Assembly: GCA_030696775.1 (NCBI GenBank)
Contig: JAUYRN010000012.1
Span: 65,426 to 129,425 of the forward strand
Source: Sulfuricurvum sp.
GTDB lineage: Bacteria; Campylobacterota; Campylobacteria; Campylobacterales; Sulfurimonadaceae
Reading direction: 5' to 3'
DNA: 64,000 nt
Shown: piece after piece, positions 8,079-42,537 of the stretch
How positions within the stretch are numbered: the stretch's first letter is position 1
Layout: every line of letters starts with the position of its first letter
Translations under genes and position numbers: made by a program
Notes under the pieces: generated by a model
Told to the model about the DNA's origin: nothing
The model's input: the letters and a program-made list of their open reading frames with translations, nothing else
The model's database searches: none

Positions 8079-9772
8079 TATTTATCCTTATATTCTAACA
8101 TCATATTGAAGAGTGATCCACCTGCAGGAACCATTGGAAGTACATTCTCAAAGCGTGCAACTACAACGTCGATAAGTGCTACTACATTTTTTTCTACTGC
8201 ATCTTTCAGCGCCGTATCAAACTCTTCTTTGGTCGTTACACGGTAACCGACTCCGCCAAAACTTTCAGCAAGTTTCACAAAATCAGGCTGAATCGAAAGA
8301 TCGGTTGATGAATGGCGTTTGTCGTAAAACATAGTTTGCCATTGACGAACCATTCCCAAGAAATTATTGTTCAAAATAACGTTGATAACGGGCAGATTGT
8401 ATTCAACAGCTGTCATCAATTCTTGAATATTCATCAAGATCGATCCATCACCTGTGATGTTGATACTGACCCGATCCATATCCGCTCGTTTTACTCCGAT
8501 TGCAGCTGGGAAACCATATCCCATAGTCCCTAATCCGCCTGAACTGTTCCATTGGCGCGGACGGCTAAATGGATAGAACTGAGCCGTCCACATTTGGTGC
8601 TGGCCTACATCGGTAGAGATGTTGGCATCATCACCTAAAAGCTGACCTATACGCTGAACAACCCATTGCGGCTTGAGTCGATCACCCTCTTCAGTGTAGG
8701 ACAATGGATGAAGCTTGTTAAAATTCGCAATTGTATTGTGCCATGGGGCATAACGTAATGGATCGACTTGATCTTTTGCTAAGGTCATCATAGATTCGAC
8801 TACATTTTTAACATCTCCAACAATCGGGAAATGAGCATTTACCAACTTAGATATGCTTGCAGGATCAATATCAACATGAATAATCTGTGCATTTTTTGCA
8901 AATTCAGAAAGTTTACCCGTTACACGGTCATCAAAACGAGCGCCCAAACCAATGACCAAATCCGTCTCGGACATCGCCATATTTGCTGCATACGATCCAT
9001 GCATTCCCAACATTGAAATAAGTAACGGATCTGCATGATGAAGCGTTCCTCGTGCCATAAAAGTCTCAACCGCTGGAATTTGAGTCATTTTTGAAAACTC
9101 ACGCACCAGTTCAGCTGCACCCGAGCTGATAACACCGCCACCAAGATAGAGTAAAGGCCGTTTTGCATTGGCTATCGCTTCAACCGCTTTTTTAATTTGA
9201 CGCATATTCCCTTTTACCGTAGGCTTATAGGTCTCAAGCTCTACTTCTTTGGAATAATCAAATAAGGCTATTTGGGCCGTAACATCTTTTGGAATATCGA
9301 CATGCACTGGACCTGGGCGACCGGTACGTGCTAAATAAAATGCTTCTTTGAGGATACGCGCCAAATCCTTGGCATCCGTTACCAAATAGTTATGCTTCGT
9401 ACATGGACGACTGATTCCTACAGCATCGATCTCTTGGAACGCATCTGTACCAATAAGAGACATGGGAACTTGCCCGCTGATTACTACAAGAGGAACAGAA
9501 TCCATATAAGCATCTGCAATACCTGTAATAGCATTGGTAAATCCAGGGCCTGACGTAATCATCGCTACGCCTACTTTCCCTGAAGCCTTTGCATACCCTT
9601 CAGCAGCGTGTACGGCTGCTTGTTCATGACGTGTAAGGACGTGTTGAAACGAACTTTGTTGATAAATTGCATCATAGACGTTCATAATTGCACCGCCTGG
9701 ATAACCGAATATGACTTCGACTTCCTCCGCGATAAGAGCTTCGATAACCATCTGTGCGCCGCTTATTTGCAT
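8078..9772 (-). CDS. ilvB: Acetolactate synthase large subunit
   Basis: FGYPGGA, RHEQAA, TSGPG, DVGQHQMW and the ThDP motif GDGS...NN. Confidence 0.97.
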   Translation of the reverse strand: MQISGAQMVIEALIAEEVEVIFGYPGGAIMNVYDAIYQQSSFQHVLTRHEQAAVHAAEGYAKASGKVGVAMITSGPGFTNAITGIADAYMDSVPLVVISGQVPMSLIGTDAFQEIDAVGISRPCTKHNYLVTDAKDLARILKEAFYLARTGRPGPVHVDIPKDVTAQIALFDYSKEVELETYKPTVKGNMRQIKKAVEAIANAKRPLLYLGGGVISSGAAELVREFSKMTQIPAVETFMARGTLHHADPLLISMLGMHGSYAANMAMSETDLVIGLGARFDDRVTGKLSEFAKNAQIIHVDIDPASISKLVNAHFPIVGDVKNVVESMMTLAKDQVDPLRYAPWHNTIANFNKLHPLSYTEEGDRLKPQWVVQRIGQLLGDDANISTDVGQHQMWTAQFYPFSRPRQWNSSGGLGTMGYGFPAAIGVKRADMDRVSINITGDGSILMNIQELMTAVEYNLPVINVILNNNFLGMVRQWQTMFYDKRHSSTDLSIQPDFVKLAESFGGVGYRVTTKEEFDTALKDAVEKNVVALIDVVVARFENVLPMVPAGGSLFNMMLEYKDK

Positions 9773-9953
9773 GTCGTCTCCTTTACGTAAAATAGGTGTG
9801 AATAATATTAAAAAATTACGAAATTATAAGTGATATTAACTATAAATTACGTTAAATAGCCTATTGGCTTCAGAAAAATAGGTTAAAATTGATATTCATC
9901 AATCTATCACAGAACAAAGAGCGTTAAAATTCTAAAAATTTAAAGGATACTCC

Positions 9954-10358
9954 ATGAAAATGATCTTTTTGACAACTTTAACCACTGCGATATTAAGTGC
10001 AACGGACGGTTATTCTCTCTATAAAAATAATTGTATGAAATGTCATGCAGAGATGATGACGAAAGCGGAGGTTATGAAATCTTTTGGATCCCTAAAGGCA
10101 CCGCCTATGGTGGAAATTTCCAATCGACTCAAAGCCAATATCCATATTGTGGATGAAGACAAAGACGTCAAGCGTCGCGTGGTAATCGCTTTTATCAAAG
10201 ACTATATCGATAATCCAAGCATTCAATACAGTATGTGTGAACCAATGGCATTGGAAAAGTTTGGTGTAATGCCCTCTCTAAAAGGTAAGCTCAATAACAA
10301 ACAAAAAGAAGCGGTTGCTGCGTGGATATATGACCGGTATGAAGGTAAAACGTTTTAA
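9954..10358 (+). CDS. Periplasmic monoheme c-type cytochrome
   Basis: Signal peptide, CMKCH heme motif and distal Met candidates (PPM, GVMP). Confidence 0.85.
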   Translation: MKMIFLTTLTTAILSATDGYSLYKNNCMKCHAEMMTKAEVMKSFGSLKAPPMVEISNRLKANIHIVDEDKDVKRRVVIAFIKDYIDNPSIQYSMCEPMALEKFGVMPSLKGKLNNKQKEAVAAWIYDRYEGKTF

Positions 10359-24867: not shown

Positions 24868-27477
24868 TTACCGGCTGCGTTTTTTATTCCAATACCGTAT
24901 TAACACTTTACGAGTCTCTTCTGCCAATAAAACAATCACCGTCACGCCTGTAACTGCCCACCAATAAGCTGGATCAAATGCGGCGGTTCCAAACAGTGTG
25001 CTCAAAGGAGGAAAGAAAATAAGCAAGAGCAAAAGAAGCAATTCGACAACAACACCGATCCAATAATATCCATTTTTCCACCATCCGATTTTCCATAAGG
25101 ATTCTCGAGTGCTTCGGCAAGAAAGACCGTTGGCAATCTGTGCAAAAACGATTGCGGCAAACGTCAGGGTTGTTGCTTGAAGATACAATGGATTAGTCCA
25201 ATCTAACGGTTCTCCATTCCAACCATGAGCTTTGAGATAGATCCAAAAAAGTCCCATCGACAATACCGCAGTAATCATTCCCAAAAAACCAAAAGCACGT
25301 AAATAGACACCAACGTTTAATATCCGTTCTTTTTTACTTCTAGGTCCCTGATTCATTAACCCCTCATGAGGAAGTTCTACCCCCAATGCCAATCCAGGCA
25401 TAATATCCGTCCCCAGATCAATTGCCAAAACAAGCGGAACCGGAAGTGCCAGAGGAAGTCCCATCCAAAAAAAGAAGACATACGGAACCGCTTCAGGAAG
25501 ATTACTGGAGAGCATGTAGGTAATAAAGCGTCGTATGTTTTCATAGACAGTACGCCCCTCTTCTATTCCTTTGACTATCGTTGCAAAATGATCATCCATC
25601 AGCACAGCATCTGCTGATTGTTTTGCCACATCCGTCCCTGATCCCATTGCAATTCCTACATCAGCTTTTTTAAGAGCAGGAGCATCATTAACTCCATCAC
25701 CCGTTACGGCAACCGTGTCTCCCATCTCTTTTAGCAATGTTACAAGATAGAGTTTTTGTTCTGGCGAGACACGTGCAAAGACATGATTATTCCGCAACAG
25801 TCTTTTAATGGCTGAGGGTGGTAATTTATCAAGATATTCCCCCGTTGTTACCTCAGTACTTTTTATAATAATTTTCGCACTCATCCCGATTGCTCCAGCA
25901 GTTAGCGGATGATCTCCCGTAATCATCAGCACTCTGATACCTGCTTTATGGCATAACTCAACGGCTTCTGTAATATCGTCACGTAAAGGATCAACCATCG
26001 CGATAAAACCAATAAAAATCAAAGCACTTTCAGCCTCTTCTCGTGACGTTGGCAATGTGTCGCACTCACGTTTGGCAAAACCGATGACACGATACCCGCA
26101 TGCTGCCATCGTGTCATGTTTTTCCATCAGTTTTTGATATTCATCCTCCAGTATCACTTTCTTCCCATTTTGAGTATAAACCTCATCACACAACTGTAAA
26201 ATTACTTCGGGTGCCCCTTTGCAAAGAACAGAAAAACCTTTTTTATTCGAGTGTACCGTGCTCATCCGTTTGAGATGATAATCAAACGGATAGTCATTCA
26301 CGAGAGGATAGACACTGCGACGTGATTCAATATCGATATAGTTAACCGCAAATTTATAAAGAGCCTGTTCTACAGGATCTCCACTGTTCGCGTCGGCAAG
26401 ATTACATAATAAAGCAGCATCGAGAAGTTCTGGCGAAGGATCTTGTGTCTCATCCTCTGCCCATGCAGCTACTTCCATCTTATTTTGCGTTATTGTTCCT
26501 GTTTTATCAGTTGCAATCACCGTCACAGCACCCAAATTTTCAATAACAGAGAGACCGTTGACCAAAAATCCTTTAGACGCCATCCGCTGCGCACCAAACG
26601 CCAATGCTAAAGTCACAGTCGGTAAAAGTCCCTCCGGTATCAAAGCGACCAAAACTCCCAATGCAAACAAAAAAGTTTTCCACAGCTCAAATCCTCCGGC
26701 TTGGGTTGCGATAAGAATCAAACTCCCTGCAATCACCAACGATGTCAAAGCAATGACTTTGGATATATGGGCAATCTCTTTTTGCAAATGACTCACACCC
26801 GAATCCACCGTTTGGGTCAACGCCGCTATTGTTCCATATCGGCTTTCCTTGCCTGTGGCGAACACCAAACCTCTGGCTTCACCTTTGACAACATACGTTC
26901 CTGAATAGAGGATATTTTTTTTATGATCGCTCTCGAGTGTATCTGCAAAAACCAATTCGCTCTCTCCGGTTAGAGTGCTTTCATTGACCCATACATCGGA
27001 TGCATGAATGATGTACACATCTGCAGGAACCTTATCTCCCTCTTTAAGGATTACAACATCACCAGGGACAAGCTGGGTTGCTAATACCATACGTTCGCTG
27101 CCTTGACGGCATACCATCACTTTTAGGGGAAGCATATTTCGCAAAGCTTCCAAACTTTTTTCGGTGCGATACTCTTGATAAAAACCAAATGCCCCATTCA
27201 AAACGATCACAATGACAATAGCCCATCCGATCGGTAACATATTGGAAGCGGGGTCAAACCAAGCTGCCGCAAAACTGATGGCCGCAGCAGCCCAGAGCAA
27301 AAGAGCAAAAAAATGGGTAAATTGTACTGCTAATTTAAAATACCATGGTCTCGTAGGAATAGAAGGAAGGAGATTCAACCCGTGCTGAAGCTGTCTTCGT
27401 TTGACCTCATCCTCTGTTAAACCCTTATTCGAAGAGCTAAACGTTAAAAATACTTCCGAAAGCGTCATCGAATTCAT
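24868..27477 (-). CDS. Cation-transporting P-type ATPase (type II, IIC-like)
   Basis: TGES, PEGL, DKTGT, KGAPE, MITGDH, GDGVND and IDLGTD. Confidence 0.93.
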   Translation of the reverse strand: MNSMTLSEVFLTFSSSNKGLTEDEVKRRQLQHGLNLLPSIPTRPWYFKLAVQFTHFFALLLWAAAAISFAAAWFDPASNMLPIGWAIVIVIVLNGAFGFYQEYRTEKSLEALRNMLPLKVMVCRQGSERMVLATQLVPGDVVILKEGDKVPADVYIIHASDVWVNESTLTGESELVFADTLESDHKKNILYSGTYVVKGEARGLVFATGKESRYGTIAALTQTVDSGVSHLQKEIAHISKVIALTSLVIAGSLILIATQAGGFELWKTFLFALGVLVALIPEGLLPTVTLALAFGAQRMASKGFLVNGLSVIENLGAVTVIATDKTGTITQNKMEVAAWAEDETQDPSPELLDAALLCNLADANSGDPVEQALYKFAVNYIDIESRRSVYPLVNDYPFDYHLKRMSTVHSNKKGFSVLCKGAPEVILQLCDEVYTQNGKKVILEDEYQKLMEKHDTMAACGYRVIGFAKRECDTLPTSREEAESALIFIGFIAMVDPLRDDITEAVELCHKAGIRVLMITGDHPLTAGAIGMSAKIIIKSTEVTTGEYLDKLPPSAIKRLLRNNHVFARVSPEQKLYLVTLLKEMGDTVAVTGDGVNDAPALKKADVGIAMGSGTDVAKQSADAVLMDDHFATIVKGIEEGRTVYENIRRFITYMLSSNLPEAVPYVFFFWMGLPLALPVPLVLAIDLGTDIMPGLALGVELPHEGLMNQGPRSKKERILNVGVYLRAFGFLGMITAVLSMGLFWIYLKAHGWNGEPLDWTNPLYLQATTLTFAAIVFAQIANGLSCRSTRESLWKIGWWKNGYYWIGVVVELLLLLLLIFFPPLSTLFGTAAFDPAYWWAVTGVTVIVLLAEETRKVLIRYWNKKRSR

Positions 27478-27496: not shown

Positions 27497-28843
27497 TTAT
27501 AAATACCTAAAGATTTCAGAGACACTCGGGTGGACATGGATCATATTTATAATCTCCTTTGAAGTGAGTTTTTTCTCAACTGCCACGACCATTTCATGAA
27601 TTATTTCCGTTGCTTCCGATCCAATGATGCCTACACCTAAAATCACATCGCTCTGTGCACAGACAATCATCTTCACAAATCCGGAATCATCTCCTTTGAT
27701 CTTTGCTTTTGCATTGGCTTTGAAAAAAGCTTTTTTTATCTGTATTGATTTTCCTTGCTCATTTGCTTCTTTTTCACTCAGCCCGCAGCTTGCGATTTGA
27801 GGATTTGAGAAGACAGTGGAAGGATTAATATGGTCGTTGCATTCCGTACCGCCGCTAATGAGGTTACGAGCGGCGATTTTTGCTTCGCAGTATGCAGTAT
27901 GGGCATACGCCGGTGTGTCGATGCAGTCACCTAGTGCATAAATGTTTGGCTGGATGGTTTGAAAGGAATCATTAACACGGATGAAACCTTTGTGAGACAA
28001 TTGTACTCCTGCATTTTCAAGATGAAGTTCTTGGGTATACGGGTCTCGACCGATTGCGCTCAGTACGAGTTCGCACTCAATATCCTCTTCAGTTTGTCCC
28101 TGAACTCTCAATGTTACACTTTCAGTATGCACGTAAACTTTTAAAATCGATGTAGAGGTCATGACAATGATACCGGATTTTTTAAAAGCCCGTACCAAAG
28201 TCTTGGATATGTCTTCATCTTCACCGGAAAGGAGTTGAGTACCACGCGCTATGAGCGTCACATTGACTCCAAAAGAATTAAAAAATGTCGCAAATTCGCA
28301 TCCGATAGCTCCCCCTCCGATTATAACAATCGATTTAGGGAAAGTGGTCAGTTCAAATACCTCACGGCTGGAAAGGATACGTTTACCGTCTAGAGGAAGC
28401 AGTGGCATTTCTCGAACTTTCGCACCTGTAGCGATAATACACTTCTCAAAACCGATTTTCTCACCTGAGACATCAATCGTATGAAAGTCTATAAATGTTG
28501 CTTCGCCATAAAGTGTTTCAACCCCTACTTGATCCAGTAACCAAACTACACCTGAACGCAGCTCATTTTTAAGTGCTATAGTTCTCTCTCGAAGATGCTC
28601 CAAATCCAATCCGTTGACCTGCACGTCCAATCCGCAGTCGGAAAAATAGGAAGCTTTTGACGCATACGAAGCACTCTCCAAATAATTTTTGGTTGAAATA
28701 CACCCCTCATTTAGACACGTTCCCCCGATACGTTCTTTGCTTTTGTCAATCAGCAGGGTTTTTAGCCCTGCACCTCCCAGCTCAATGGCCGCTTCATATC
28801 CTCCTGGTCCTGCTCCGATTACGATTGCGTCATACTGTTTCAT
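27497..28843 (-). CDS. lpdA: Dihydrolipoyl dehydrogenase (E3)
   Basis: GAGPGG, GGTCLNEGC redox disulfide, GGGAIG and HPSVSE. Confidence 0.93.
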   Translation of the reverse strand: MKQYDAIVIGAGPGGYEAAIELGGAGLKTLLIDKSKERIGGTCLNEGCISTKNYLESASYASKASYFSDCGLDVQVNGLDLEHLRERTIALKNELRSGVVWLLDQVGVETLYGEATFIDFHTIDVSGEKIGFEKCIIATGAKVREMPLLPLDGKRILSSREVFELTTFPKSIVIIGGGAIGCEFATFFNSFGVNVTLIARGTQLLSGEDEDISKTLVRAFKKSGIIVMTSTSILKVYVHTESVTLRVQGQTEEDIECELVLSAIGRDPYTQELHLENAGVQLSHKGFIRVNDSFQTIQPNIYALGDCIDTPAYAHTAYCEAKIAARNLISGGTECNDHINPSTVFSNPQIASCGLSEKEANEQGKSIQIKKAFFKANAKAKIKGDDSGFVKMIVCAQSDVILGVGIIGSEATEIIHEMVVAVEKKLTSKEIINMIHVHPSVSEIFRYL

Positions 28844-29697
28844 TTTGTCTCCAAATATTCATGTGCCATATAGCTACTGCGAGTATAAGGCGAGCTTTTG
28901 ATATGCGAAAATCCCATTTCCATACCACGATTCTTGAGATACTCAAACCGTTTTGGCTCCACATACTCTACAACAGCTTCATGTTTATGCGAGGGGGAAA
29001 GATACTGACCGATACTCAAATAGCGACAGCCTGCCTCCCATAAATCTTCCATAAGCCTCAACACCTCATCATCACGCTCACCAAATCCCAGCATTATGCC
29101 GCTTTTGATTGCGATGTCAGGATTCAGAATGTGAAGAGTCCCCAATACACGAAGCGAACATTCATAATCAGAGCCTTTGCGTACATGATAGAGTCTCGGT
29201 ACCGTCTCGATGTTATGTCCGATAATCTCTGCACCGCTATGTACTATACGCTCAAGTGCCAATAGATTTTCTTTCATATCAGGTATCAGCAGCTCTACGA
29301 GAATAGAATCATCCAATGCTTTTATCGCACGAACCGTTTTATAAAAATGATCGGCTCCTCCGTCACTCAAATCATCACGCGTTGAACTGGTAATGACCAC
29401 ATGCCTTAATCCCAGATGTAAAACCGTTTGTGCGACATTCTCAGGTTCATAAGGGTTTAAAGCCAATGGAATTCCTCTGCTGACAGCACAAAAACTGCAA
29501 GCACGCGTACAAATCGTCCCTAAAATCATAAAGCTTGCCACATTTTTACTAAAACACTCACCGATATTAGGACACATCGCCTCTTCACAAATGGTATGAA
29601 CACGTCCTTGTGACAATACTCTCTCCATTGCACTTTGATCGCTCATCTTTATCTTTTTACGAAGCCAAAGTGGTTTATAACTGAGTGCTTTTTCCAT
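28840..29697 (-). CDS. lipA: Lipoyl synthase
   Basis: CEEAMCPNIGEC, CTRACSFC and RSSY. Start adjusted; the ORF track gives 29733. Confidence 0.95.
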   Translation of the reverse strand: MEKALSYKPLWLRKKIKMSDQSAMERVLSQGRVHTICEEAMCPNIGECFSKNVASFMILGTICTRACSFCAVSRGIPLALNPYEPENVAQTVLHLGLRHVVITSSTRDDLSDGGADHFYKTVRAIKALDDSILVELLIPDMKENLLALERIVHSGAEIIGHNIETVPRLYHVRKGSDYECSLRVLGTLHILNPDIAIKSGIMLGFGERDDEVLRLMEDLWEAGCRYLSIGQYLSPSHKHEAVVEYVEPKRFEYLKNRGMEMGFSHIKSSPYTRSSYMAHEYLETK

Positions 29698-30469
29698 GTA
29701 CATTCCAGCTTTCTTGAGTATATTTGTCCGCATTTAATTGCGTGGCGCGTTGCATTTGCAATACAGTTAGAGAATCCGTCACGAGCTCAACAGCAAACGT
29801 TTCACAAAATGATTTTCGTACCAATGTCGAAAGCTCCTCGTACGAGATAAGAGTTCCCAACTTCTCCAACGTTGCCGCCTTGTCCAATCCTGACTCTTCC
29901 AAAAAAAGCGGTTTAAAAAAAGGTTCATCGATTCTCATAGGGATACTTCCGTGCTGGAATACAGCATCTCTCGTATAACGCTGTGCATTTCCTCCCATCT
30001 TTTTTCCCTCGATTACAATATCATAGGGTTCAATTCCTGAAAGACATAGGTTTGAGCGTTGTTCATTGAGCTGAAGATCACACGCAAATCGAGCCTCAAA
30101 TCCTAGCTTTTGATACAAAGCGATGAGAAACTCACACACATAGCGATAATTTTCTTTGACCGCTGTGCCTCTCATCCAACTACGCGGGAGGATGAGAGTG
30201 TATGAGAGATCACCGCCATGGATCAAAATTCCACCGCCACTCATACGCCGAACGCACGAAATATTTTTTGCCCGAATATTTTCAGGATGCAGATTCTCTA
30301 TAAAAGTTGAAAAACGTCCGAGACTCAGTGACTTTTCCCATCCATAAAGTCGAATGATCGGCATATCCCCGTCTTTAAACTCATCTAAAAGAGTTTGATC
30401 TACCGCCATATTCCACGTAGCTTTTCCCATCCCTGTGTCGAGAAAACGCCATGCAGTATGCGTCATCAT
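29675..30469 (-). CDS. Lipoate-protein ligase / octanoyltransferase family (LplA/LipM-like)
   Basis: NMAVD, RRMSGGG..H..D, KKMGGNAQ and QHGSI. Confidence 0.88.
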   Translation of the reverse strand: MMTHTAWRFLDTGMGKATWNMAVDQTLLDEFKDGDMPIIRLYGWEKSLSLGRFSTFIENLHPENIRAKNISCVRRMSGGGILIHGGDLSYTLILPRSWMRGTAVKENYRYVCEFLIALYQKLGFEARFACDLQLNEQRSNLCLSGIEPYDIVIEGKKMGGNAQRYTRDAVFQHGSIPMRIDEPFFKPLFLEESGLDKAATLEKLGTLISYEELSTLVRKSFCETFAVELVTDSLTVLQMQRATQLNADKYTQESWNVHGKSTQL

Positions 30470-30577
30470 GATTGCGTCCTTCTACTTCATTTTTTTATCA
30501 CTAATTTAGACTATACTTTTTTTAATCGCCCTTGATTTTATCAGAGAGAACGAAGTTTTAAATGAGGTAGCTATACG

Positions 30578-32329
30578 ATGAAGAAAAATTGGATCGAAAA
30601 AAATTTGAACGCTTTTTCTATCAAACCAAATTTGATGGAGTACTTCCATGAACGGGAATCTTTCAATTGGGAAAATGTGGCTAAAGAGTTTGATGGACTA
30701 GACTCAGGTGGGCTCAATATCGCGCATGAAGCCATTGACCGCCATGCCAATGGTCCACTTTGCGATAAAGCAGCATTGATATGGCTGGGAGAAAACGGTG
30801 AGAAAAAAATCTATTCTTTTAGCGATATAAAAAAACAAAGCGCCAAATTTGCCAACGTACTCCAATCTCTTGGAATTTCCAAAGGGGAGCGAATATTTAC
30901 CCTCTCTACACGGTTGCCTGAACTTTACATTGCTGCTATTGGAATTCTAAAAAACCGCAGTGTTCTTTGTCCACTTTTTTCCCAATTCGGTCCCGAACCG
31001 ATATTACAACGGATGCAGAGGGGTGATGGCAAAGTTCTTCTGACAACCAAGGCACTTTTTGAAAAAAAAGTCCGTCCTCTGATGAAACAATTGAATGATC
31101 TTCGCTATGTACTCTTGATCGATGCCCAAGAAGATGAGAGTGAACGTATTCTCTCCCTCCCTCGCCTGATGGAAAAAGCCGCTGACTCCTTTACAATACT
31201 TCCCACGGATCCTGAAGATATGTCCTTGCTACACTTCACAAGCGGGACGACGGGTATGCCAAAAGGGGTAGTCCATGTCCACAAAGCACTTTACAATCAC
31301 TGGATGAGCGGTCGGTATGTTCTCGATTTTCATCCTGATGATGTTTACTGGTGCACCGCCGATCCGGGATGGGTGACGGGAACCTCGTATGGGATAATCA
31401 CCCCTTGGCTGCATGGCATTACCAACATCGTCGATGAAGCCGAATTTGATGCCGTGCGATGGTACAGTGTTTTGCAAAATGAGAAAGTCACAGTTTGGTA
31501 TACGGCACCAACAGCGATCAGACGGTTAATGAGACTGAATAATGAACCGACTAAAGAATACGATCTTTCTCATTTACGCCTCATCCAAAGTGTCGGTGAA
31601 CCGCTCAATCCTGAAGCAGTCGTGTGGGGAGTTGAAAAGCTAAAAATGCCGATCCATGATAACTGGTGGCAAACGGAGACAGGCGCAATCATGATAGCCA
31701 ACTTCCTCTCCCAACAAATACGCGCAGGTTCCATGGGACGACCGCTTCCGGGAATCGAAGCATCCATTGTCCATCACAATGATGATGGTACTGTTACGGA
31801 AGTTACCGAACCAAACAAAGAAGGAGAACTCGCACTCAAACCGGAATGGCCCTCCATGTTTCGTAACTATCTTCACGACGATGAACGCTATGCCAAGTGT
31901 TTTGTCGGAGGTTGGTACCTCTCCGGAGATCTCGCATACAAAGATGAAGATGGCTATTTCTGGTTTGTCGGGCGCAGTGATGACATCATAAAAACTTCCG
32001 GTCACATGGTAGGGCCGTTTGAAGTGGAAAGCTGCTTGATGGAACATCCCGCAGTTGCAGAAGCGGGCGTTATCGGTAAACCGGATGCGATGATAGGACA
32101 ATTGGTCAAAGCTTTTGTTTCTTTAAAAACTGGGGTTGAGCCAAGCGAAGAACTTAAACGCGAACTAATCGGATTTGGGCGCAAGAGACTGGGCAGTGCC
32201 GTAGCACCCAAAGAGATAGAATTTACTCCAAACATACCAAAAACACGAAGCGGAAAAATCATGAGGCGTTTACTAAAATCACGAGAAATGGGATTGCCTG
32301 AGGGTGATACCTCCACATTAGAAGATTAA
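30578..32329 (+). CDS. acsA: Acetate--CoA ligase (AMP-forming)
   Basis: [35 protein letters not shown] and TRSGKIMRR. Confidence 0.92.
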
Positions 32330-32340
32330 AAGGAGAAAAA

Positions 32341-33291
32341 ATGGATCTGACTTTAGCAAATGAGTTTTATCGCAAAATGCTTTTAATTCGCCGATTTGAA
32401 GAAAAATGTGTGGAGCTTTACAGCAAAGAAAAAATCAGAGGATTTTTGCATCTGTACATCGGAGAAGAAGCGATTGCCGTGGGTCTTATGCATGCCCTTT
32501 CTCCAGAAGATGCCGTGTTTGCTACCTATCGTGAACATGGACAAGCCCTCGCACGTGGAATAGATCCGAAAAAAATCATGGCTGAAATGTACGGAAAAGT
32601 AGAAGGATGTTCTCGCGGACGAGGTGGTTCCATGCACCTTTTTGATGCTGAAACACGATTTTATGGAGGCAGCGCCATTGTAGCAGGAGGTTTACCGTTA
32701 GCGGTCGGGATGGCACTCTCAGATAAGATGATGAATCGCAACCGAGTCACCGTCTGTATTTTCGGAGATGGTGCTGTTGCAGAGGGAGAATTTCATGAAT
32801 CACTCAATCTTGCTGCTTTATGGCATCTTCCGGTTCTCTTTGTCTGTGAGAATAACCTCTATGCAATGGGAACTGCATTGAAATTCACCGAATCGGAAAC
32901 CAATATTTCTCTCAAAGCAGCTTCATACCGTATCCATTCTCAACAAGTCGATGGTATGGATGTTGAAGCAGTATCAAAATCAGTACAACAAGCAGTATCC
33001 GAGATTCGCTTGGGTAATGGCCCTATGTTTTTCGAATACCTCACCTACCGTTTCCGCGCTCATTCGATGTTCGATGCAGAGCTTTACCGCGACAAAGCAG
33101 AAGTAGAAGAATGGAAGAAAAAAGATCCTCTTATTCTCCTGCATCAACGCTGGAAGGATATTAATATCAATAAATATGAAACTGAAATCGCGGATATTAT
33201 TGATGAAGCAGTGACATTTGCCGAAAACGGCACACTCGAATCTATTGAGGATCTGGAAAAATTTCTTTACTCTGACGAGGTTGCACAATGA
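32341..33291 (+). CDS. pdhA: Pyruvate dehydrogenase E1 alpha subunit
   Basis: [25 protein letters not shown]...ENN and YRFRAHS. Confidence 0.93.
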
Positions 33292-34271
33292 GCTCTATTA
33301 TGACCTATCGAGAAGCGGTACGGCTTGGACTACGAGAAGCTATGGAAAAGGATGAACGCGTTTTTTTAATGGGGGAAGACGTCGGCCACTACGGAGGAAG
33401 TTACGCCGTCAGTATGGGATTCTTGGAAGATTTTGGTCCACAGCGTATTATTGATACACCCTTGTCTGAGTCAGCGTTTACCGGTGCTGGTATCGGTGCT
33501 GCTTTGGGCGGGATGCGTCCCATTGTCGAACTTATGACCGTAAATTTCAGTCTCTTGGCACTTGATCAGATCATGAACAATGCAGCAACCCTTCTTCACA
33601 TGTCGGGGGGTCAGTTTAATGTTCCGCTGGTTATCCGAATGGCAACAGGTGGAGGCAAACAGCTCGCTGCACAACACTCTCATTCGCTGGAAGGGTGGTA
33701 TGCGCATATTCCGGGACTAAAAGTGCTAACCCCTGCAACCATACAAGATGCGCACAATATGATTGGTTTGGCGCTTGCCGATCCTGATCCGGTATTAATT
33801 TTCGAGAGTGCGATGCTTTACAATTCTAAGGGGGTACTGGATACCCAAGCACTTCCTTTGCCTATTGGAAAAGCACGAATACAGCGAGCAGGTAAAGATC
33901 TAACCATTTTAACCTACGGCAGCAGTCTCTTTAAAGCACTTGAGGCTGCAAAAACTCTAATCCCAGAAGGAATTGATGCTGAAGTAATTGATTTGCGTTC
34001 TCTTCGTCCTTTAGATGATGAAACGATAATGAAATCGGTTGCTAAAACTCACCGTGTGCTGATCGTTGATGAGGGGTGGAAATCGGGAAGTATATCAGCA
34101 GAGATTATGGCGCGAATCAACGAACAGGCTTTTTTTGAACTTGATGCTCCGATGGCACGTTTATGCACAGCTGAAATTCCCCTCCCCTATCCCAAACATC
34201 TCGAAGATGCTGCCCTGCCTCATGCGGACAAAATTGTTGCGATGGCAAAAAAACTAATGGAGAAATCATGA
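33288..34271 (+). CDS. pdhB: Pyruvate dehydrogenase E1 beta subunit
   Basis: GEDV, DTPLSE, QHSHS and [13 protein letters not shown] overlap with pdhA. Confidence 0.93.
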
Positions 34272-35344
34272 GCCAATTTGTTATGCCCAGTTTGGGCGCC
34301 GATATGGAATCCGCCATTTTGATGGAATGGCATGTCAAAGAAGGAGATCACGTCACCAAAGGTCAAGTCATTGCAGAGGTTGAAACGAACAAAGGCGTTA
34401 TAGAGATAGAAGTATTCGAAGAGGGATTTGTCGAAAAGATTCTCGTAAAAGAGGAGACGGAATGTAGCGTAGGTACACCACTGGCAATCATCCGAACTGA
34501 GGGAGAAAAACCAATAACCAAAGAAGCTCCCCAAAGCGAACGGATCAAAGTTTCCCCCGCAGCAAGGAAAAAAGCAAAAGAAATGGGTATCGAACTTAGT
34601 TCCTTAGCTGAGGGCACTGGAGAAATCCATCTTTCCCAAATAGAAACAACCTCAAAACCACTTTCCAATACTTCTCAACCAAGTGGTATGCGTCAAGCCA
34701 TAGCTCGCGCTATGAGCCGTTCCAATGCCGAAATTCCCCACTATTATCTCACGACCTCCATCAACATGACACCGGCACTTCACTGGCTCGAAGCACTCAA
34801 TGCTACCAGAGGTATCAAAGAACGGATTCTCCCGGCAGCCTTGCTGATTCGTGCCGTCGTCCTTGCACTAAAAACAGTACCAGAACTCAACGGATTTTGG
34901 GAAAATGATGCTCCAAACATCTCTCCTGCTATTAATCCCGCAATCGCAATAGCCTTACACAAAGAGGGACTGATTACTCCGGCACTTCTTAATGCCGATT
35001 CGATGGGGCTGGATGAGACCATGCATCAACTTGATGATCTTATCACCCGTACCCGTGCTGGAAAACTGCGAAACACAGAAATTACACAGCAAACTATTAC
35101 GATTACCAACCTTGGTGATTTAGGTGTAGAGAGCGTGTTCGGTGTCATCTATCCACCACAGATTGCTCTTGTAGGATTGGGTCGGATTATGGATGCTCCA
35201 TGGGCAGAAGGTGATGCTCTGTGTGTACGTAAAGTGATGAAGGCAACACTTGCCGGTGACCACCGTGCCACAGATGGACGAACCGGAGCCAAATTTCTGG
35301 AAAAACTAAACGATCTATTGCAACACCCACAGGAGCTACTATGA
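34268..35344 (+). CDS. pdhC: Dihydrolipoamide acyltransferase (E2), single lipoyl domain
   Basis: Lipoyl domain ETNKG, E3-binding SPAARKKA and catalytic DHRATDG. Confidence 0.92.
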
Positions 35345-35583
35345 CCCAAGAGCAAATAAAATCCGCCATCATCGAACAAATATTGGAAATTGCCCCTGAT
35401 ATCGATGAAGCGGATATCATCCCCGATAAAAATATTCAACGCTCACTGGAGATCGATTCGTTTGATTTTCTAAAAATATTGATGAATCTAAGTGAAATAC
35501 TAGGCGTTGAGGTTCCCGAATCAGATTATGCGAAAGTGGATACAGTAGATCATATGTGTGCGTATTTTATGGAGCATCGATAA
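35341..35583 (+). CDS. Acyl carrier protein
   Basis: 80 aa and acidic, with LEIDSFD phosphopantetheine Ser motif. ATGA overlap with pdhC. Confidence 0.88.
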   Translation: MTQEQIKSAIIEQILEIAPDIDEADIIPDKNIQRSLEIDSFDFLKILMNLSEILGVEVPESDYAKVDTVDHMCAYFMEHR

Positions 35584-36104: not shown

Positions 36105-37130
36105 ATGTCATCTATAGCATGGCTTTCCAAAAAACTTGACGATGGGAGGATTGCATGTGAAGCATGCAATCAACACTGCAAACTAAGCGAAGGTGAATAC
36201 GGTATTTGCGGGATTCGTAAAGTCGAAAATGGTGAGCTTTATTTACTGACGTACGGACTTGCAGCAGCAGTCAATGTTGATCCGATAGAAAAAAAACCCA
36301 TGTTTAATTTTTTACCCGGTTCAAGCGTCTTTTCGTTTGGAACGGTTGGATGTAATTTTTCCTGCAAATTTTGTCAAAATGCAGATATTTCACAATATCC
36401 GAAAGAACATAATCATGAGATAATCGGACATCCTTTATCTCCACAGCGAGCCGTTGCTAAAGCCCTCGAATATGGGTGTCAAAGCATTGCGTACACGTAC
36501 AATGAACCGGTTGTCTTTTTCGAATACACCTACGATACCGCAAAACTTGCGCATGAAGCAGGTTTAAAAAACATCTACGTCACAAGCGGGTATGAAACGC
36601 ACAAAGCCATCGATACCATAGCCCCTTATTTGGACGGTATGAATATTGATATTAAAGGATATAGCCAGTCTTTTTATAAAGACATCTGCGGTGCATCTCT
36701 CAAACCTGTGCTGGATACGATCGAATATGCCCACAAAAAAGGGATATGGATAGAGACAACGACTCTGCTCATTCCTGGATACAACGATTCGGATGATGAG
36801 ATTCGAGCAATCGCACAATTTCAAGCCAGCCTCGATACCAATATGCCGTGGCACATCAGTGCTTTTCATCCGATGTATAAAATGTTAAATGTTCCTCGTA
36901 CACCCGCGCAAACACTTCGTCGTGCCTATGATATTGGTAAGGACGTCGGATTAAAGTATGTGTATGTTGGAAATATTGACGATGAAGCAAGAGAATCAAC
37001 CTACTGTCCAAAATGCGGAAAACTGGTCATCGATCGTCACGGCCATATCGGGCAGTATGTAACGAACCATTTAGTCAATAATAACCAGTGCCCTTCATGC
37101 AGTTATACACTGCATGGTATTTGGCAATAG
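36105..37130 (+). CDS. amrS: AmmeMemoRadiSam system radical SAM enzyme
   Basis: N-terminal CxxC..C..C, DPIEKKP, GCNFSCKFCQN, YTYNEP and C-terminal CPxC pairs. Confidence 0.92.
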   Translation: MSSIAWLSKKLDDGRIACEACNQHCKLSEGEYGICGIRKVENGELYLLTYGLAAAVNVDPIEKKPMFNFLPGSSVFSFGTVGCNFSCKFCQNADISQYPKEHNHEIIGHPLSPQRAVAKALEYGCQSIAYTYNEPVVFFEYTYDTAKLAHEAGLKNIYVTSGYETHKAIDTIAPYLDGMNIDIKGYSQSFYKDICGASLKPVLDTIEYAHKKGIWIETTTLLIPGYNDSDDEIRAIAQFQASLDTNMPWHISAFHPMYKMLNVPRTPAQTLRRAYDIGKDVGLKYVYVGNIDDEARESTYCPKCGKLVIDRHGHIGQYVTNHLVNNNQCPSCSYTLHGIWQ

Positions 37131-37518: not shown

Positions 37519-38133
37519 ATGAACAGTAATCCAGAACTTATTAATCATCTCATCAGATCAGGTGCTCTTCACTCTACCGCACTGATAAAAGCATTTCGAG
37601 AATGTGACCGTAGTCTTTTTGTCCCAAAAGAACTGAATGATGAAATCTATGGTGATTATCCACTGCCAATCGGTATGGGACAAACTATTTCTTAGCCCAC
37701 AACGGTCGCTATTATGCTGGAACTTTTACAACCACAATCCGGTGAGAAGATTTTAGATATTGGTTCAGGTTCAGGATGGACAACCGCCCTTTTAGCGACA
37801 GCTGTCGGTAAAGATGGATTCGTAGAAGGTATTGAGCGTATTGAATATCTCGTAGAGTATGGACAACAACGTTTAAAAAATGCGAATATTGACAATGCAT
37901 CGATTGAATTGGCAAATCCATCTGTTCTTGGAAAACCTGGTCATCTGTATGACCGCATTCTCGTTTCTGCGAGTGCTATGGATATGCCAATGGAATTATT
38001 GGATCAGCTCAAACCTGATGGAATTCTGGTTATTCCGATTTTAGAGAGCGTTTGGCGTATTACAAAAGCAAGAAACGGTGAAATAAAAAGCTATGAATTG
38101 CCGGGCTTTCGTTTCGTTCCGCTTATCAGATAA
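37519..38133 (+). pseudogene. pcm: Protein-L-isoaspartate O-methyltransferase with in-frame TAG at 37693-37695
   Basis: The ORFs 37480-37695 and 37714-38133 are in one frame and read GQTIS*PTTV..MLELL..ILDIGSGSGW. The stop replaces the Gln of TISQP. Confidence 0.85.
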
Positions 38134-39374: not shown

Positions 39375-40919
39375 TTAGCGTATAAGGTCGAAGAAATAGT
39401 CGGTTGTTGCGATACCTTTGGTATCTTCATCCAACTGGTCAAGAACTTTGTTCGTGATCCAAGTAAGAAGGTTCAAAGCCCCATCGTACCCGCTGATAGA
39501 GTAACGGTGAAGGTGGTGACGGTCGAAGATTGGGAATCCGATGTAGATCAACGGAGTACCAGTATCGCGCATCAACTCTTTACCATAGCTGTTACCGATC
39601 ATGAAATCGACAGGCTCAGTGAAGAGAAGTGAACGCATTGCCCACAAGTCTTTACCAGCCCATACATTCAAACTGTCTTTTGCAGGAGACGTATCGAGCA
39701 TTGCTCTCATCTCTGCTTCCCAACCGTTTGGTGCATTGTGGCAAAGAACGTGAGTAGGCTCAGCACCCATCTCTAACAAGAATGATACTGCACCGATTAG
39801 GAAGTCAGGATCACCCCAGATAGCGAATTTTTTACCGTGCATGTACGGATAGCTGTCTTGCATAGCATCAACTAAACGGCCGCGCTCGATTTTTAGTTTT
39901 GATGGAACTTCTGTCCCTGTCAATTCTGCAAGTTTCATAACAAATTCATCTGTCCCTTTAAGACCGACTGGGTTAGAGAATCCACCTGCATGTTTCCAAC
40001 GTTTTTCGACCATTTTCATGGTTTTAACGGTAGCGTATTTTTGTAAAGAGATCGTTGCACTTGAATTGATACAATCTTTTGCATCATCCAATTTTGTTCC
40101 GCCTTGGAACATTTCGTATTGACCTGCTGGCATATCCCACTGATCAGAGTGGTCTCCCAACATAATATAGTCAGTTCCGAATGCTTCTACGATACTTTTT
40201 ACCGAACGAAGGCTTCCGATGTACGTTTCAAAACCAGGAATGATGTTGATACGTTGTTTCGTTTCGCCTTTGTTTCCTTCTGTAAGCTGTGACATGATAC
40301 CGTGCATCATGTTATCATATCCAGTAATATGACTTCCAACGAATGATGGAGTATGCGCATAAGGGATTGGATAATCAGAAGCAAGGTATTCGCCGCCGTC
40401 TTCTTCTTTTGCTGCAATGATAAACGCCATCAAGTCGTCACCGATTACTTCTGCCATACATGTGGTAGAAACAGCGATCATTTTAGGTTTATAAACAGCA
40501 GCACAGTTTTTAAGACCCTCTTTCATATTTACCAATCCACCAAATACTGCAGCATCTTCAGTCATAGAATCCGATACACATGGTGTAGGCTCTTTGAAGT
40601 GACGAGTAAAGTATGAACGGAAATACGCAACACATCCATGTGAACCATGAACGTAAGGCATAGTACCTTCAAATCCGAGTGCAACCATAACCGCACCAAG
40701 TGGTTGGCATGCTTTAGCAGGATTAACAGTAATAGCTTCCCTGGCAAGGTTTTTCTCACGGTAATCCCATGATTTAGTCCACTCAGCAATCTCTTCTACT
40801 TTCGCAGGATTAACAGCGAGCATGGACGACTCAAATTGTTTTTTGTTTTTAAGTACTTCTTGATACTCAGGTCGTTTAAACAGGTCTTTCCCGTTGACGA
40901 TTTTTTCTACTTCTTGCAT
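39375..40919 (-). CDS. nifK: Nitrogenase MoFe protein beta chain
   Basis: P-cluster Cys in KACQPLG, SHGCVAY and TTCMAE. Start MQEVEK has an AAGGA RBS. Confidence 0.97.
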   Translation of the reverse strand: MQEVEKIVNGKDLFKRPEYQEVLKNKKQFESSMLAVNPAKVEEIAEWTKSWDYREKNLAREAITVNPAKACQPLGAVMVALGFEGTMPYVHGSHGCVAYFRSYFTRHFKEPTPCVSDSMTEDAAVFGGLVNMKEGLKNCAAVYKPKMIAVSTTCMAEVIGDDLMAFIIAAKEEDGGEYLASDYPIPYAHTPSFVGSHITGYDNMMHGIMSQLTEGNKGETKQRINIIPGFETYIGSLRSVKSIVEAFGTDYIMLGDHSDQWDMPAGQYEMFQGGTKLDDAKDCINSSATISLQKYATVKTMKMVEKRWKHAGGFSNPVGLKGTDEFVMKLAELTGTEVPSKLKIERGRLVDAMQDSYPYMHGKKFAIWGDPDFLIGAVSFLLEMGAEPTHVLCHNAPNGWEAEMRAMLDTSPAKDSLNVWAGKDLWAMRSLLFTEPVDFMIGNSYGKELMRDTGTPLIYIGFPIFDRHHLHRYSISGYDGALNLLTWITNKVLDQLDEDTKGIATTDYFFDLIR

Positions 40920-41070
40920 TGTGTTTTCCTTGGTATAGACAATTTTCTGCCTCATACGAGGCAAGGAATTTTCAAAGCGCCAAAAGCGCAAGGGCCTTCT
41001 GCGAGAGCCAACTCAGTGTGTTTAATGCATCTGAGCTAGACTTTGCTCGCTCAGCTTAGGAAAAAAGGCT

Positions 41071-42537
41071 TCAGCCTTCTTTCTCCCATGGTGCTTTTGA
41101 ATGTGCCCATACAGGAGAATTGATCGCAAGATCCATATCCTGGGCGAAAATAGCGAATCCATCGTACCCGTGGTAAGGTCCGCTGTAATCCCATGAGTGC
41201 ATTTGACGGTATGGGAGACCCATTTTTTGGAATACATACTTCTCTTTGATCCCAGAAGCTACAAGATCTGGTTGAAGTTTTTTAACAAATGCTTCAAGCT
41301 CATACTCGTTAACGTCATCATAGATAACAGTTGAACGGAAGATCTCTTCTTTAGTACGTTTGTAGTCATCATCATGAGCGAACTCATATCCTGTTCCGAT
41401 TACTTCCATACCCAAATCTTCATATGCTCCGATAACGTGACGAGGACGAAGACCGCCGACGAACAACATAACCGTTTTACCTTCAAGACGTGGCTTATAT
41501 TTTGCGATAACCGCATCGATCATCGGTTGATATTTAGCGATAACTTCTTCACATTTTTTCTGAACACTTTCGTCAAAGAACGCCGCGATTTTACGGAGTG
41601 ATTTGATGGTTTGTGACGGTCCGAAGAAGTTGTACTCGATCCAAGGAATCCCGTACTCTTTTTCCATGTGACGGCTGATATAGTTCATTGAACGGTAGCA
41701 GTGAAGCAAGTTCAATTTTACTTTTGGTGTCAATGCCATCTCTTTAAGAGTTGCATCTCCTGACCATTGTGCAACAACACGAAGGCCCATTTCTTCCAAA
41801 AGGATACGGCTTGACCATGCGTCACCACCGATGTTATAGTCACCGATAATTGCTACGTCATACTCAGTCGTTTCAACATCGCTTGTATTAACATTTACTT
41901 TACCATCAAAGATAAAGTCACGTACTGTGTCATTTGCAATGTGGTGCCCAAGACTTTGCGAAACTCCACGGAAACCTTCACAGTTAACAGGAACGATAAC
42001 TTTATCAAGCTCTTTTGCTTTAACACGTGCTACTGCACCGATATCATCCCCGATCAAACCGATTGGACATTCTGATTGGACAGTGATACCATTATTAAGA
42101 GGGAAAAGTACTTCGATTTCATCGATACATTTACCCAATTTTTTATCTCCGCCGAAAACGATGTTGTTCTCTTGGAAATCCGAGCTAAAGTTCATCGTTA
42201 CAAACGTATCAACACCCGTTACACCGATGTAATAGTTACGACGACCTGCACGGCTATATTGACCGCATCCGATTGGTCCGTGACTGATGTGGATCATATC
42301 TTTGACAGGACCCCATACAACCCCTTTAGAACCTGCATAAGCACAACCGCGTTGGCTCATAACACCGGGAACGGTTTTTTTGTTTGAACGGACATCGCCG
42401 CACGTTTTTTGATTTTCATCATTTGGAGATCCGACACCTAAATGTTTTTCACGGTTTTTCGCCGCTTTTTCAGGATACGCTTTTAAGATCTCTTCAATGG
42501 CCGCTTTTTGTTTGGCTTCTAGTGATTCTGGTCCCAT
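41071..42537 (-). CDS. nifD: Nitrogenase MoFe protein alpha chain
   Basis: P-cluster [14 protein letters not shown] and SECPIG; FeMoco ligands LHCYRSM and MHSWDY. Confidence 0.98.

Follow-up and report, generated by a model that had tools for sequence, protein, structure and literature searches.

In a 64,000-nucleotide stretch of a Sulfuricurvum sp. contig (JAUYRN010000012.1, positions 65,426 to 129,425 of the forward strand; hereafter, the window), we analyzed two divergent operons that encode a pyruvate-dehydrogenase-like complex together with an acetate-activating enzyme, an acyl carrier protein (ACP) and enzymes of lipoylation. On the plus strand, acsA, which codes for a short-type AMP-forming acetate-activating enzyme (30578–32329; NF003313), is followed by pdhA (E1alpha, binding thiamine diphosphate (ThDP); 32341–33291; TIGR03182), pdhB (E1beta; 33288–34271; NF006667), the gene for the dihydrolipoamide acyltransferase E2 (34268–35344; PF00364, PF02817 and PF00198) and that for an ACP of 80 aa (35341–35583; PF00550). 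On the minus strand, across an intergenic spacer of 108 bp (30470–30577), lie an lplA-like gene (29675–30469; PF21948 catalytic domain only), lipA (lipoyl synthase, a radical SAM enzyme; 28840–29733; TIGR00510) and, as the last gene of this operon, lpdA (dihydrolipoyl dehydrogenase, E3; 27497–28843; TIGR01350). ATGA was read at positions 33288, 34268 and 35341, the start codon overlapping the preceding stop at all three junctions, and lipA and lpdA share a 4-nt start/stop overlap of the same kind on the minus strand. The coordinates and ATGA overlaps that an earlier note on this DNA had given for acsA-pdhA-pdhB-E2-ACP matched the list of open reading frames (ORFs) exactly, and the divergence of lplA-like, lipA and lpdA from acsA was also as that note described, with a measured spacer of 108 bp compared to its estimate of about 110 bp. 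As called, the lplA-like and lipA genes overlap by 59 nt, which would probably be reduced to only about 20–30 nt if the internal lipA start MEKALSYKPLWLRKK were used.

With regard to the PDH-type enzymes, E1alpha scored 427.6 bits against the pyruvate dehydrogenase (PDH) equivalog model TIGR03182 (cut-off 393.85), with the ThDP motif GDG-X-NN beginning at residue 142, while E1beta reached 405.6 bits against NF006667 (cut-off 321) and had human mitochondrial PDH E1beta as its nearest solved structure (293 bits). E2 is composed of a single lipoyl domain (PF00364), a peripheral subunit-binding domain (PF02817) and a catalytic domain (PF00198) in which the motif DHRATDG is present. Its score remained under the cut-off of the equivalog model TIGR01349 (227 vs. 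445), likely because the protein is short (358 aa) and has a single lipoyl domain. The lipoyl-lysine motif is a non-canonical ETNKG, in line with the T-x-K-G/A that the E2 proteins of this cassette generally carry instead of DKA. LpdA scored 442.5 bits against TIGR01350 (cut-off 408.8), and it carries the CLNEGC redox disulfide and the HxxxxE motif. By these assignments, the cassette encodes a PDH-like complex of the mitochondrial/alphaproteobacterial type, i.e., with an alpha2beta2 E1.

The ACP reached 32 bits against PF00550, and its best NCBIfam score was 38 bits, with cut-offs of at least 65. That it falls under all named NCBIfam families (AcpP, AcpM, DltC and others) indicates a divergent, separate ACP lineage. 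An AlphaFold model of the protein (predicted local distance difference test, pLDDT, 94.6) showed four helices at residues 3–17, 40–54, 60–66 and 69–79, with Ser40 of the IDSFDF motif opening helix II. The sequence LEIDSFDFL, including Ser40, was invariant in ACP homologues, and the serine itself was invariant across phyla. Furthermore, the stretch NIQRSLEIDSFDFL did not vary among the 120 best-scoring homologues, which were 68–98% identical and included Sulfuricurvum, Sulfurimonas and Sulfurovum; nearly all of them, whether from sequenced genomes or from environmental assemblies, bore the label Campylobacterota. From this conservation, the ACP is evidently under strong purifying selection. The protein is acidic (pI 4.2). 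Neither a phosphopantetheinyl transferase (PPTase) nor a ketosynthase was found in the block, as the earlier note had stated, or among the examined neighbours (22–42 kb); without a PPTase in the block, phosphopantetheinylation of the ACP would need the host AcpS.

Whether the ACP is a constant companion of these enzymes had been set in the earlier note as a point on which its proposal could fail. A scan with an ACP profile, using one genome per species, yielded 80 loci, onto which, and later onto plasmid loci, the window proteins were mapped. In 83 loci, 1.3 kb or more of sequence preceded the ACP gene, and the E2 gene lay directly 5' of it in 81 of these, the exceptions being a decayed Arcobacteraceae locus (L046) and a Caldilineaceae locus (L076). 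In the former (9609–10243 of a metagenome-assembled genome (MAG)), an intact ACP gene stands behind a 131-aa C-terminal remnant of E2, with unrelated genes upstream, which corresponds to a decayed cassette. The full acs-E1alpha-E1beta-E2-ACP block was present in 50 Campylobacterota loci; outside this phylum, it was found under the labels Desulfobacter, Akkermansia (Verrucomicrobiota), Vicinamibacterales, Solibacteraceae, Chloroflexota/Caldilinea, Rhodocyclaceae/Azoarcus, Halomonas, Pirellulaceae and deltaproteobacterium. Sulfurimonas baltica, whose genome is complete, has the same locus. The taxa with the cassette comprise Campylobacterota, Thermodesulfobacteriota, Alpha-, Beta- and Gammaproteobacteria, Actinomycetota, Chloroflexota, Acidobacteriota, Planctomycetota and Verrucomicrobiota.

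As a reverse test, the E1beta protein of the window was searched against 72,556 plasmids. The identities obtained were bimodal, with 32 records at 62–72% and the rest at or below 51.5%. The ACP search had also recovered 27 of these 32 plasmids with cassette-type E1beta, and the remaining five corresponded to four Leisingera aquaemixtae plasmids and one unannotated Streptomyces plasmid. Inspection by hand of one of the Leisingera plasmids and of the Streptomyces plasmid located an ACP gene right after E2 in both, and thus an ACP was found in every plasmid with cassette-type E1beta that was checked; cassette-type E1 and the ACP occur one to one in this plasmid data set. A DNA-level search of the plasmids with the E2-ACP region gave short matches only, whereas the protein-level search succeeded. 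Eleven plasmid loci were viewed, ten of them annotated, with genes named as acsA, pdhA, E1 beta, E2 and 'acyl carrier protein' or 'phosphopantetheine-binding protein'. The plasmid hosts were Desulfotalea psychrophila, Cupriavidus, Ralstonia, Burkholderia savannae, Sinorhizobium fredii, Leisingera, Rhodococcus and Streptomyces, and the plasmids of D. psychrophila, B. savannae and S. fredii are conjugative. The 4-nt overlap between the E2 and ACP genes was retained in Desulfotalea, Cupriavidus, Streptomyces, Sinorhizobium, Burkholderia, Ralstonia and Leisingera. The co-occurrence survey that the earlier note had called for therefore revealed a discrete, strongly conserved five-gene cassette in at least nine bacterial phyla, and the proposal of that note withstood its own challenge on conservation of the ACP. 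A literature search found no publication on an acsA-E1alpha-E1beta-E2-ACP cassette, just as that note had known of no experimental characterisation, and this mobile gene set seems to have gone unstudied so far.

When Acs, E1alpha and E1beta were concatenated for a neighbour-joining tree, the Campylobacterota copies formed one clade, while elsewhere the tree contradicted the species tree: Rhodococcus grouped with Ralstonia and Burkholderia, Halomonas with Rhodocyclaceae, and Desulfotalea with Solibacteraceae. A locus labelled Desulfobacter latus AcRS2 (L052, on a 5.9-kb contig) fell inside the Campylobacterota clade, with 76–79% identity in Acs and E1beta, which reflects either a recent transfer or a contaminating contig. 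Taken together, the plasmid locations and the mixing of phyla in the tree indicate that the cassette is horizontally transferable. The proposal that the module was imported was consequently upheld as far as mobility is concerned, as seen from the conjugative plasmids and the conflicts with the species tree, but within Campylobacterota the copies make up a single clade, and the cassette looks long resident there, like an old acquisition that was mostly inherited vertically. GC content was discarded as a sign of recent import, the values of the block (0.43–0.46) being ordinary for the window and not distinctive.

A rearranged version of the cassette, acs-E2-ACP-E1alpha'-E1beta', was found in Sulfurovum-type loci (L045, 7014–13597; L049, 7017–13435; and L051). 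Here, the E1 genes were swapped for those of another lineage (42–44% identity) and moved 3' of the ACP gene, with acs, E2 and ACP remaining contiguous. The fact that these three genes stay joined despite the E1 swap suggests that the ACP goes with the two pantetheine-using enzymes. In L049 and L051, the relocated E1 genes are followed by another E2 gene, whose product is of the ordinary kind and has DKA as its lipoyl motif.

Campylobacterota rely on ferredoxin-dependent oxidoreductases and, for the most part, are not known to have lipoate enzymes. In the window, LipA scored 312.3 bits against TIGR00510 (cut-off 310.25), with the motifs CX4CX5C, CX3CX2C and RSSY starting at residues 49, 75 and 285, respectively. 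The LplA-like protein matched PF21948 (6.8e-30) and remained far under the cut-off of every NCBIfam ligase model; it has the motifs RRMSGGG and KKMGGNA, and neither an LplB nor a C-terminal accessory domain accompanies it. Its nearest solved structure was the catalytic subunit of Thermoplasma acidophilum LplA (2ars). In S. baltica (L001, 3335–4957), the LplA-like protein and LipA are fused into one 540-aa protein, whereas the window and most relatives have separate, overlapping genes; the NCBIfam model NF053790 describes a different, longer LplA-LipA fusion.

The occurrence of these genes was counted in 41 Campylobacterota cassettes with sufficient flanking sequence and in 23 complete cassettes of other phyla. 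Among the 41 Campylobacterota loci, lplA-like, lipA and lpdA were divergent and upstream, as in the window, in 29, appended 3' of the ACP gene in 6, partial in 2 and missing in 4. An lpdA homologue was adjacent in 35/41 Campylobacterota cassettes versus 0/23 of those from other phyla, in none of which the lplA-like, lipA and lpdA set was present; the Desulfotalea plasmid is a partial exception, as it adds a full-length salvage ligase. This distribution fits a scheme in which the cassette would borrow E3 and lipoylation in hosts with lipoate enzymes, and in which the Campylobacterota version would bring its own. The description of the locus as self-contained in the earlier note thus applies to the Campylobacterota version, whose adjoining E3 and lipoylation genes the cassettes of other phyla do not have. 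With an E3, a LipA and an LplA-type enzyme for attaching lipoyl or octanoyl groups of its own, this version could support assembly of the complex without help from the host. In that case, a lipoate-poor lineage would host a lipoate-dependent complex by having co-opted all three enzymes into the locus.

AcsA scored 917.9 bits against NF003313, the model of the short acetate-CoA ligase of the Bacillus/archaeal type (cut-off 729), and 560 bits against the 572-aa AcsA of PDB entry 9g79, which we take to be the Bacillus subtilis enzyme. It keeps the acetate-gating sequence DNWWQTETG, with its acetate-size Trp gate, and PKTRSGK with the catalytic, acetylated Lys. The equivalent of Arg526 of the Salmonella acetyl-CoA synthetase (Acs) was Met or Leu in all 59 cassette AcsA copies, and it stays Arg in the 9g79 AcsA and in canonical paralogues; the region of Salmonella R191, which with R526 and R584 makes up the three conserved Arg residues of the thioester step, could not be aligned in short-type enzymes. 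R526 is reported to stabilise the conformation of Salmonella Acs that forms the CoA thioester, and changing it cripples the CoA step (PMC10455477). In two loci (L032 and L059), a canonical long Acs is encoded directly upstream of the cassette AcsA, which indicates that the latter is not simply the acetyl-CoA synthetase of the cell.

The surroundings of the cassette in isolates, taken from the Rhodococcus, Streptomyces, Leisingera, Sinorhizobium and Burkholderia plasmids, resembled low-oxygen and stress islands. The neighbours included universal stress proteins, Hsp20, ppsA (phosphoenolpyruvate (PEP) synthase), a pfkB-family kinase, an AAA ATPase, a nitroreductase, pncB (nicotinate phosphoribosyltransferase), CBS, DUF1876 and DUF2267 proteins, a class II ribonucleotide reductase, FtsH, a P-type ATPase, and either a Crp/Fnr regulator or a GAF kinase with a response regulator. 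A universal stress protein and/or Hsp20 was encoded within about 10 kb in 7 of the 10 annotated plasmid loci. Two islands already described for low oxygen have a similar content, namely the pair of mycobacterial DosR clusters and the lxa locus. The DosR clusters also hold hydrogenase, P-type ATPase and PEP synthase genes (PMC2799521). In the lxa locus of Burkholderia cenocepacia, ackA and pta-like genes stand alongside genes for polyhydroxyalkanoate (PHA) synthesis, and storage polymers acting as electron sinks under low oxygen are a general idea in that work (PMC3721108).

We tentatively favour, at somewhat less than even confidence, a reading in which the phosphopantetheine thiol of the ACP is an acetyl acceptor shared by E2 and/or AcsA. 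E1 would decarboxylate pyruvate and acetylate the lipoyl arm of E2, whose catalytic domain would then hand the acetyl group to the 4'-phosphopantetheine of holo-ACP, instead of or besides CoA, while AcsA would form or cleave the same acetyl-thioester via acetyl-AMP. The ACP would thereby act as a private, protein-bound CoA surrogate for the two pantetheine-using enzymes. Physiologically, the gene neighbourhoods in other phyla suggest that acetyl units may be handled in this way during survival under low oxygen or growth arrest. A biochemical precedent for E2-to-ACP transfer is offered by QncN/QncL/QncM and SclQ1-4, which, according to their published description, combine E1-like proteins with an ACP and an E2-like protein of the lipoyl/acyltransferase type, so that a C2 acyl unit ends up bound to the ACP; by analogy, such a routing is plausible for the cassette. 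A more daring extension, which we regard as a long shot, is that the ACP shuttles acetyl between E2 and AcsA with AcsA working in reverse (acetyl-S-ACP + AMP + PPi -> acetate + ATP), which would amount to a self-contained, CoA-independent substrate-level phosphorylation from pyruvate to acetate, acquired horizontally to survive oxygen limitation or growth arrest.

Several observations speak against the ACP as acetyl acceptor. No consumer of acetyl-ACP (ketosynthase, acyltransferase or thioesterase) and no PPTase was encoded in or beside the cassette in any phylum examined. Both the C-terminus and the catalytic motif of E2 are canonical, consistent with an ordinary CoA-using core, and the inner CoA site of this core may be hard to reach for a 9-kDa ACP. 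In AcsA, Arg or Lys is kept at the position of Salmonella R584, a residue in contact with the 3'-phosphate of CoA, and this retention suggests that CoA is still bound. The change of Arg526 to Met or Leu was rejected as a signature of ACP use, given that a search of 1.8 billion representative proteins also detected Leu or Met at this position in many more distant short Acs-like proteins. With regard to the proposed physiology, the link to low oxygen comes from gene content only, and from phyla other than Campylobacterota. Just two stress-type neighbours recur in Campylobacterota, namely Hsp20, in 7 loci, and a P-type ATPase, in 13 loci and the window. In front of the Rhodococcus and Streptomyces acsA genes, DosR boxes were no more numerous than in shuffled controls. 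Two suggestive palindromes were noted upstream of the Streptomyces acsA.

The alternative that survives best, albeit one that we consider rather unlikely, is an ordinary module of acetyl-CoA supply, in which E2 and AcsA use free CoA on the pyruvate and acetate routes, respectively, and the ACP is a regulatory or structural partner, or else takes acyl groups from host enzymes for storage-lipid or PHA synthesis in growth arrest. All four enzymes score as PDH or Acs members with CoA-type catalytic motifs, and the R584-equivalent contact and the missing consumer already mentioned would be expected of such a module; the lxa locus, moreover, pairs PHA-synthesis genes with the acetate-handling genes ackA and pta (PMC3721108). 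However, this explanation does not say why bacteria that all have a host AcpP should strictly conserve a divergent ACP coupled in translation to E2, and it leaves unexplained both the cohesion of acs-E2-ACP through the E1 swap and the canonical Acs beside the cassette.

Two further explanations are less likely than either the acetyl-acceptor reading or the acetyl-CoA module. It is improbable that the complex is not a PDH but cleaves acetoin or another 2-oxo or alpha-hydroxyketone substrate, with AcsA recovering acetate from the released aldehyde and the ACP carrying the acyl half. The substrate range of E1 cannot be read from its sequence, an alcohol dehydrogenase gene lies beside the Streptomyces cassette, acetoin dehydrogenase operons can include a lipoate synthase of their own (Pelobacter acoS), and in Bacillus acsA adjoins acetoin-utilisation genes, but E1alpha passes the PDH equivalog TIGR03182, E1beta is nearest to human PDH E1beta, E2 matches the acetoin-type E2 model PRK14875 in the lipoyl domain only, and neither an aldehyde dehydrogenase nor an acoR-type regulator is conserved nearby. 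Marginally more improbable still is the suggestion of the earlier note that lipoylation of E2 draws its octanoyl groups from the ACP, with the LplA-like protein acting in a LipM-like manner onto the T-x-K-G lipoyl domain and LipA then inserting sulfur: the LplA-like protein does lack the accessory domain that ligases need for adenylation, no LplB lies nearby, ligases of this kind have been described as the ancestors of LipM-type transferases (PMC10332631) and E2 has a non-canonical lipoyl motif, but the ACP is equally conserved in the 23 cassettes of other phyla, which have no lplA-like gene, octanoyltransferase or lipA, four Campylobacterota cassettes with enough flank carry the ACP and no adjacent lipoylation genes, the Desulfotalea plasmid adds a full-length salvage ligase and not a transferase, and nothing in the block makes or loads octanoate, AcsA keeping its acetate-size WW gate. 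Since lipoylation genes and an E3 are joined to the cassette in Campylobacterota only, donating octanoyl groups is probably not the main role of the ACP.

Expression was monitored in a wastewater metatranscriptome with close relatives of the locus, using contig depth as a rough measure only. Contigs covered both operons at a word depth of approximately 10–20, and one contig of 1,707 nt ran through E1beta-E2-ACP, which indicates that the cassette and the lipoylation/E3 operon are transcribed in situ. The adjacent P-type ATPase was near zero in the metatranscriptome while being well covered in the DNA library of the same study. In the window, this cation ATPase (24868–27477, minus strand; Cation_ATPase_N, E1-E2_ATPase and Cation_ATPase_C of Pfam) counts as a recurrent neighbour only.

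Regarding regulation, the spacer between the two operons is partly kept among close relatives (CATTTTTTTATCA...ACTATACT, plus AAGTTTTAAATGAGG immediately 5' of the acs start). Promoter and terminator scans of the block gave matches at chance level only, and no convincing shared motif, be it an FNR/CRP-like box or another common operator, was detected in the Campylobacterota spacers. A palindrome, GTTTCATAAGGAAAC, is common to the lplA/acs spacers of seven loci (L008, L009, L011, L020, L025, L033 and L056) and may be an operator; the spacer of the window does not contain it.

All-against-all clustering of flanking ORFs outside Campylobacterota revealed nothing conserved beyond the five genes, except for hydrogenase genes in Caldilineae. 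In these Chloroflexota (L066, L071, L073, L075 and L076), the ACP gene is followed by genes for an Fe-S protein, an NAD-binding oxidoreductase and a NiFe-hydrogenase large subunit. L076 has the ACP and this hydrogenase set with no acs, E1 or E2 upstream, and a multi-rhodanese protein is encoded there instead. In Halomonas and S. baltica alike, an ORF of 270 aa comes after the ACP gene, but the two are unrelated to each other. In Halomonas rhizosphaerae (L081, 213–4475, minus strand), a 1,420-aa TIR-STAND NTPase-WD40 protein is encoded just upstream of the cassette, as it also is in a second Halomonas genome (L077); its architecture is defence-like.

Further downstream in the window, a 143-aa protein of the Host_attach/baeRF family 12 (PF10116, PF18856; 35650–36081, plus strand) is encoded right after the ACP, a position that it also holds in about 11 close relatives. 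It is followed by a radical SAM gene of the AmmeMemoRadiSam system (36105–37130, plus strand; TIGR04337, 381 bits), a recurrent neighbour in Campylobacterota that occurs near the cassette in 27 loci in addition to the window, often directly 3' of the ACP gene (loci including L024, L034–L037, L041, L042, L046 and L047); no AMMECR1 or Memo partner was identified beside it in the window. A protein-L-isoaspartate O-methyltransferase gene (37519–38133, plus strand) contains an in-frame TAG at 37693–37695 in place of the conserved Gln of GQTISQP, either as a nonsense mutation that makes it a pseudogene or as a sequence error; the S. baltica homologue is intact (203 aa). Around 4 kb downstream of the cassette, there are two adjacent genes of the nitrogenase component 1 type, nifK/nifD-like (39375–42537, minus strand; PF00148, with DUF3364 in the first).

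Were the ACP to accept acetyl from E2 or AcsA, the cassette would encode the first PDH-type complex of primary metabolism to yield a protein-bound thioester and not acetyl-CoA, and the Qnc and Scl systems of natural-product synthesis would be linked to a widespread metabolic module. If AcsA did work in reverse, there would be a parallel to ackA and pta of the lxa locus and to the AMP-using PEP synthase that is often encoded beside the cassette. Even without acetyl-ACP, a defined mobile gene set is available in the tractable Cupriavidus, Burkholderia, Rhodococcus, Streptomyces, Sinorhizobium and Halomonas, in which a role in anoxic persistence is testable.

Compared to known systems, the cassette shares four types of parts (E1alpha-like, E1beta-like, E2-like and a small ACP) with QncN/L/M of quinocarcin, NapB/C/D and SclQ1-4 of scleric acid, a likeness of gene architecture for which the known systems were taken from their published description. 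According to that description, their E1 is transketolase-like and converts ketose phosphate into glycolicacyl- or hydroxyethyl-ACP, whereas the cassette E1 is of the PDH type, and they belong to actinomycete clusters of nonribosomal peptide synthetases (NRPS) with a PPTase and a downstream condensation partner. In contrast, the cassette has AcsA and lies in stress islands rather than biosynthetic clusters; no NRPS, polyketide synthase or PPTase was found next to it in the window, the 80 genome/MAG loci and L001, or the 11 plasmid loci. Its plasmid neighbours match the make-up of DosR clusters and of the lxa locus, although the texts of the papers list no such cassette for the DosR clusters of M. 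smegmatis or the lxa locus of strain J2315, which has ackA and pta instead.

Among acetate-activating enzymes, the cassette AcsA differs from the short AcsA of the 9g79 type in that its gene invariably shares an operon with those of E1, E2 and ACP, and it may be found side by side with a canonical Acs. The acetoin dehydrogenase operon of Pelobacter carbinolicus comes with its own lipoate synthase gene, acoS, and its own E3, like the self-contained Campylobacterota version; its E1/E2 lineage is different from that of the cassette, and we know of no report of an ACP or an AcsA in it. Finally, the likeness to the mitochondrial/alphaproteobacterial PDH extends over E1alpha, E1beta, the E2 domain set with DHRxxDG, and E3. 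In comparison with ordinary PDH operons, which have neither, the cassette adds an E2-coupled ACP and a leading AcsA, its lipoyl motif is T-x-K-G/A and not DKA, outside Campylobacterota it comes without an E3 of its own, and its E1beta proteins form their own clade, with 62–72% identity inside it and at most 51.5% to all others.

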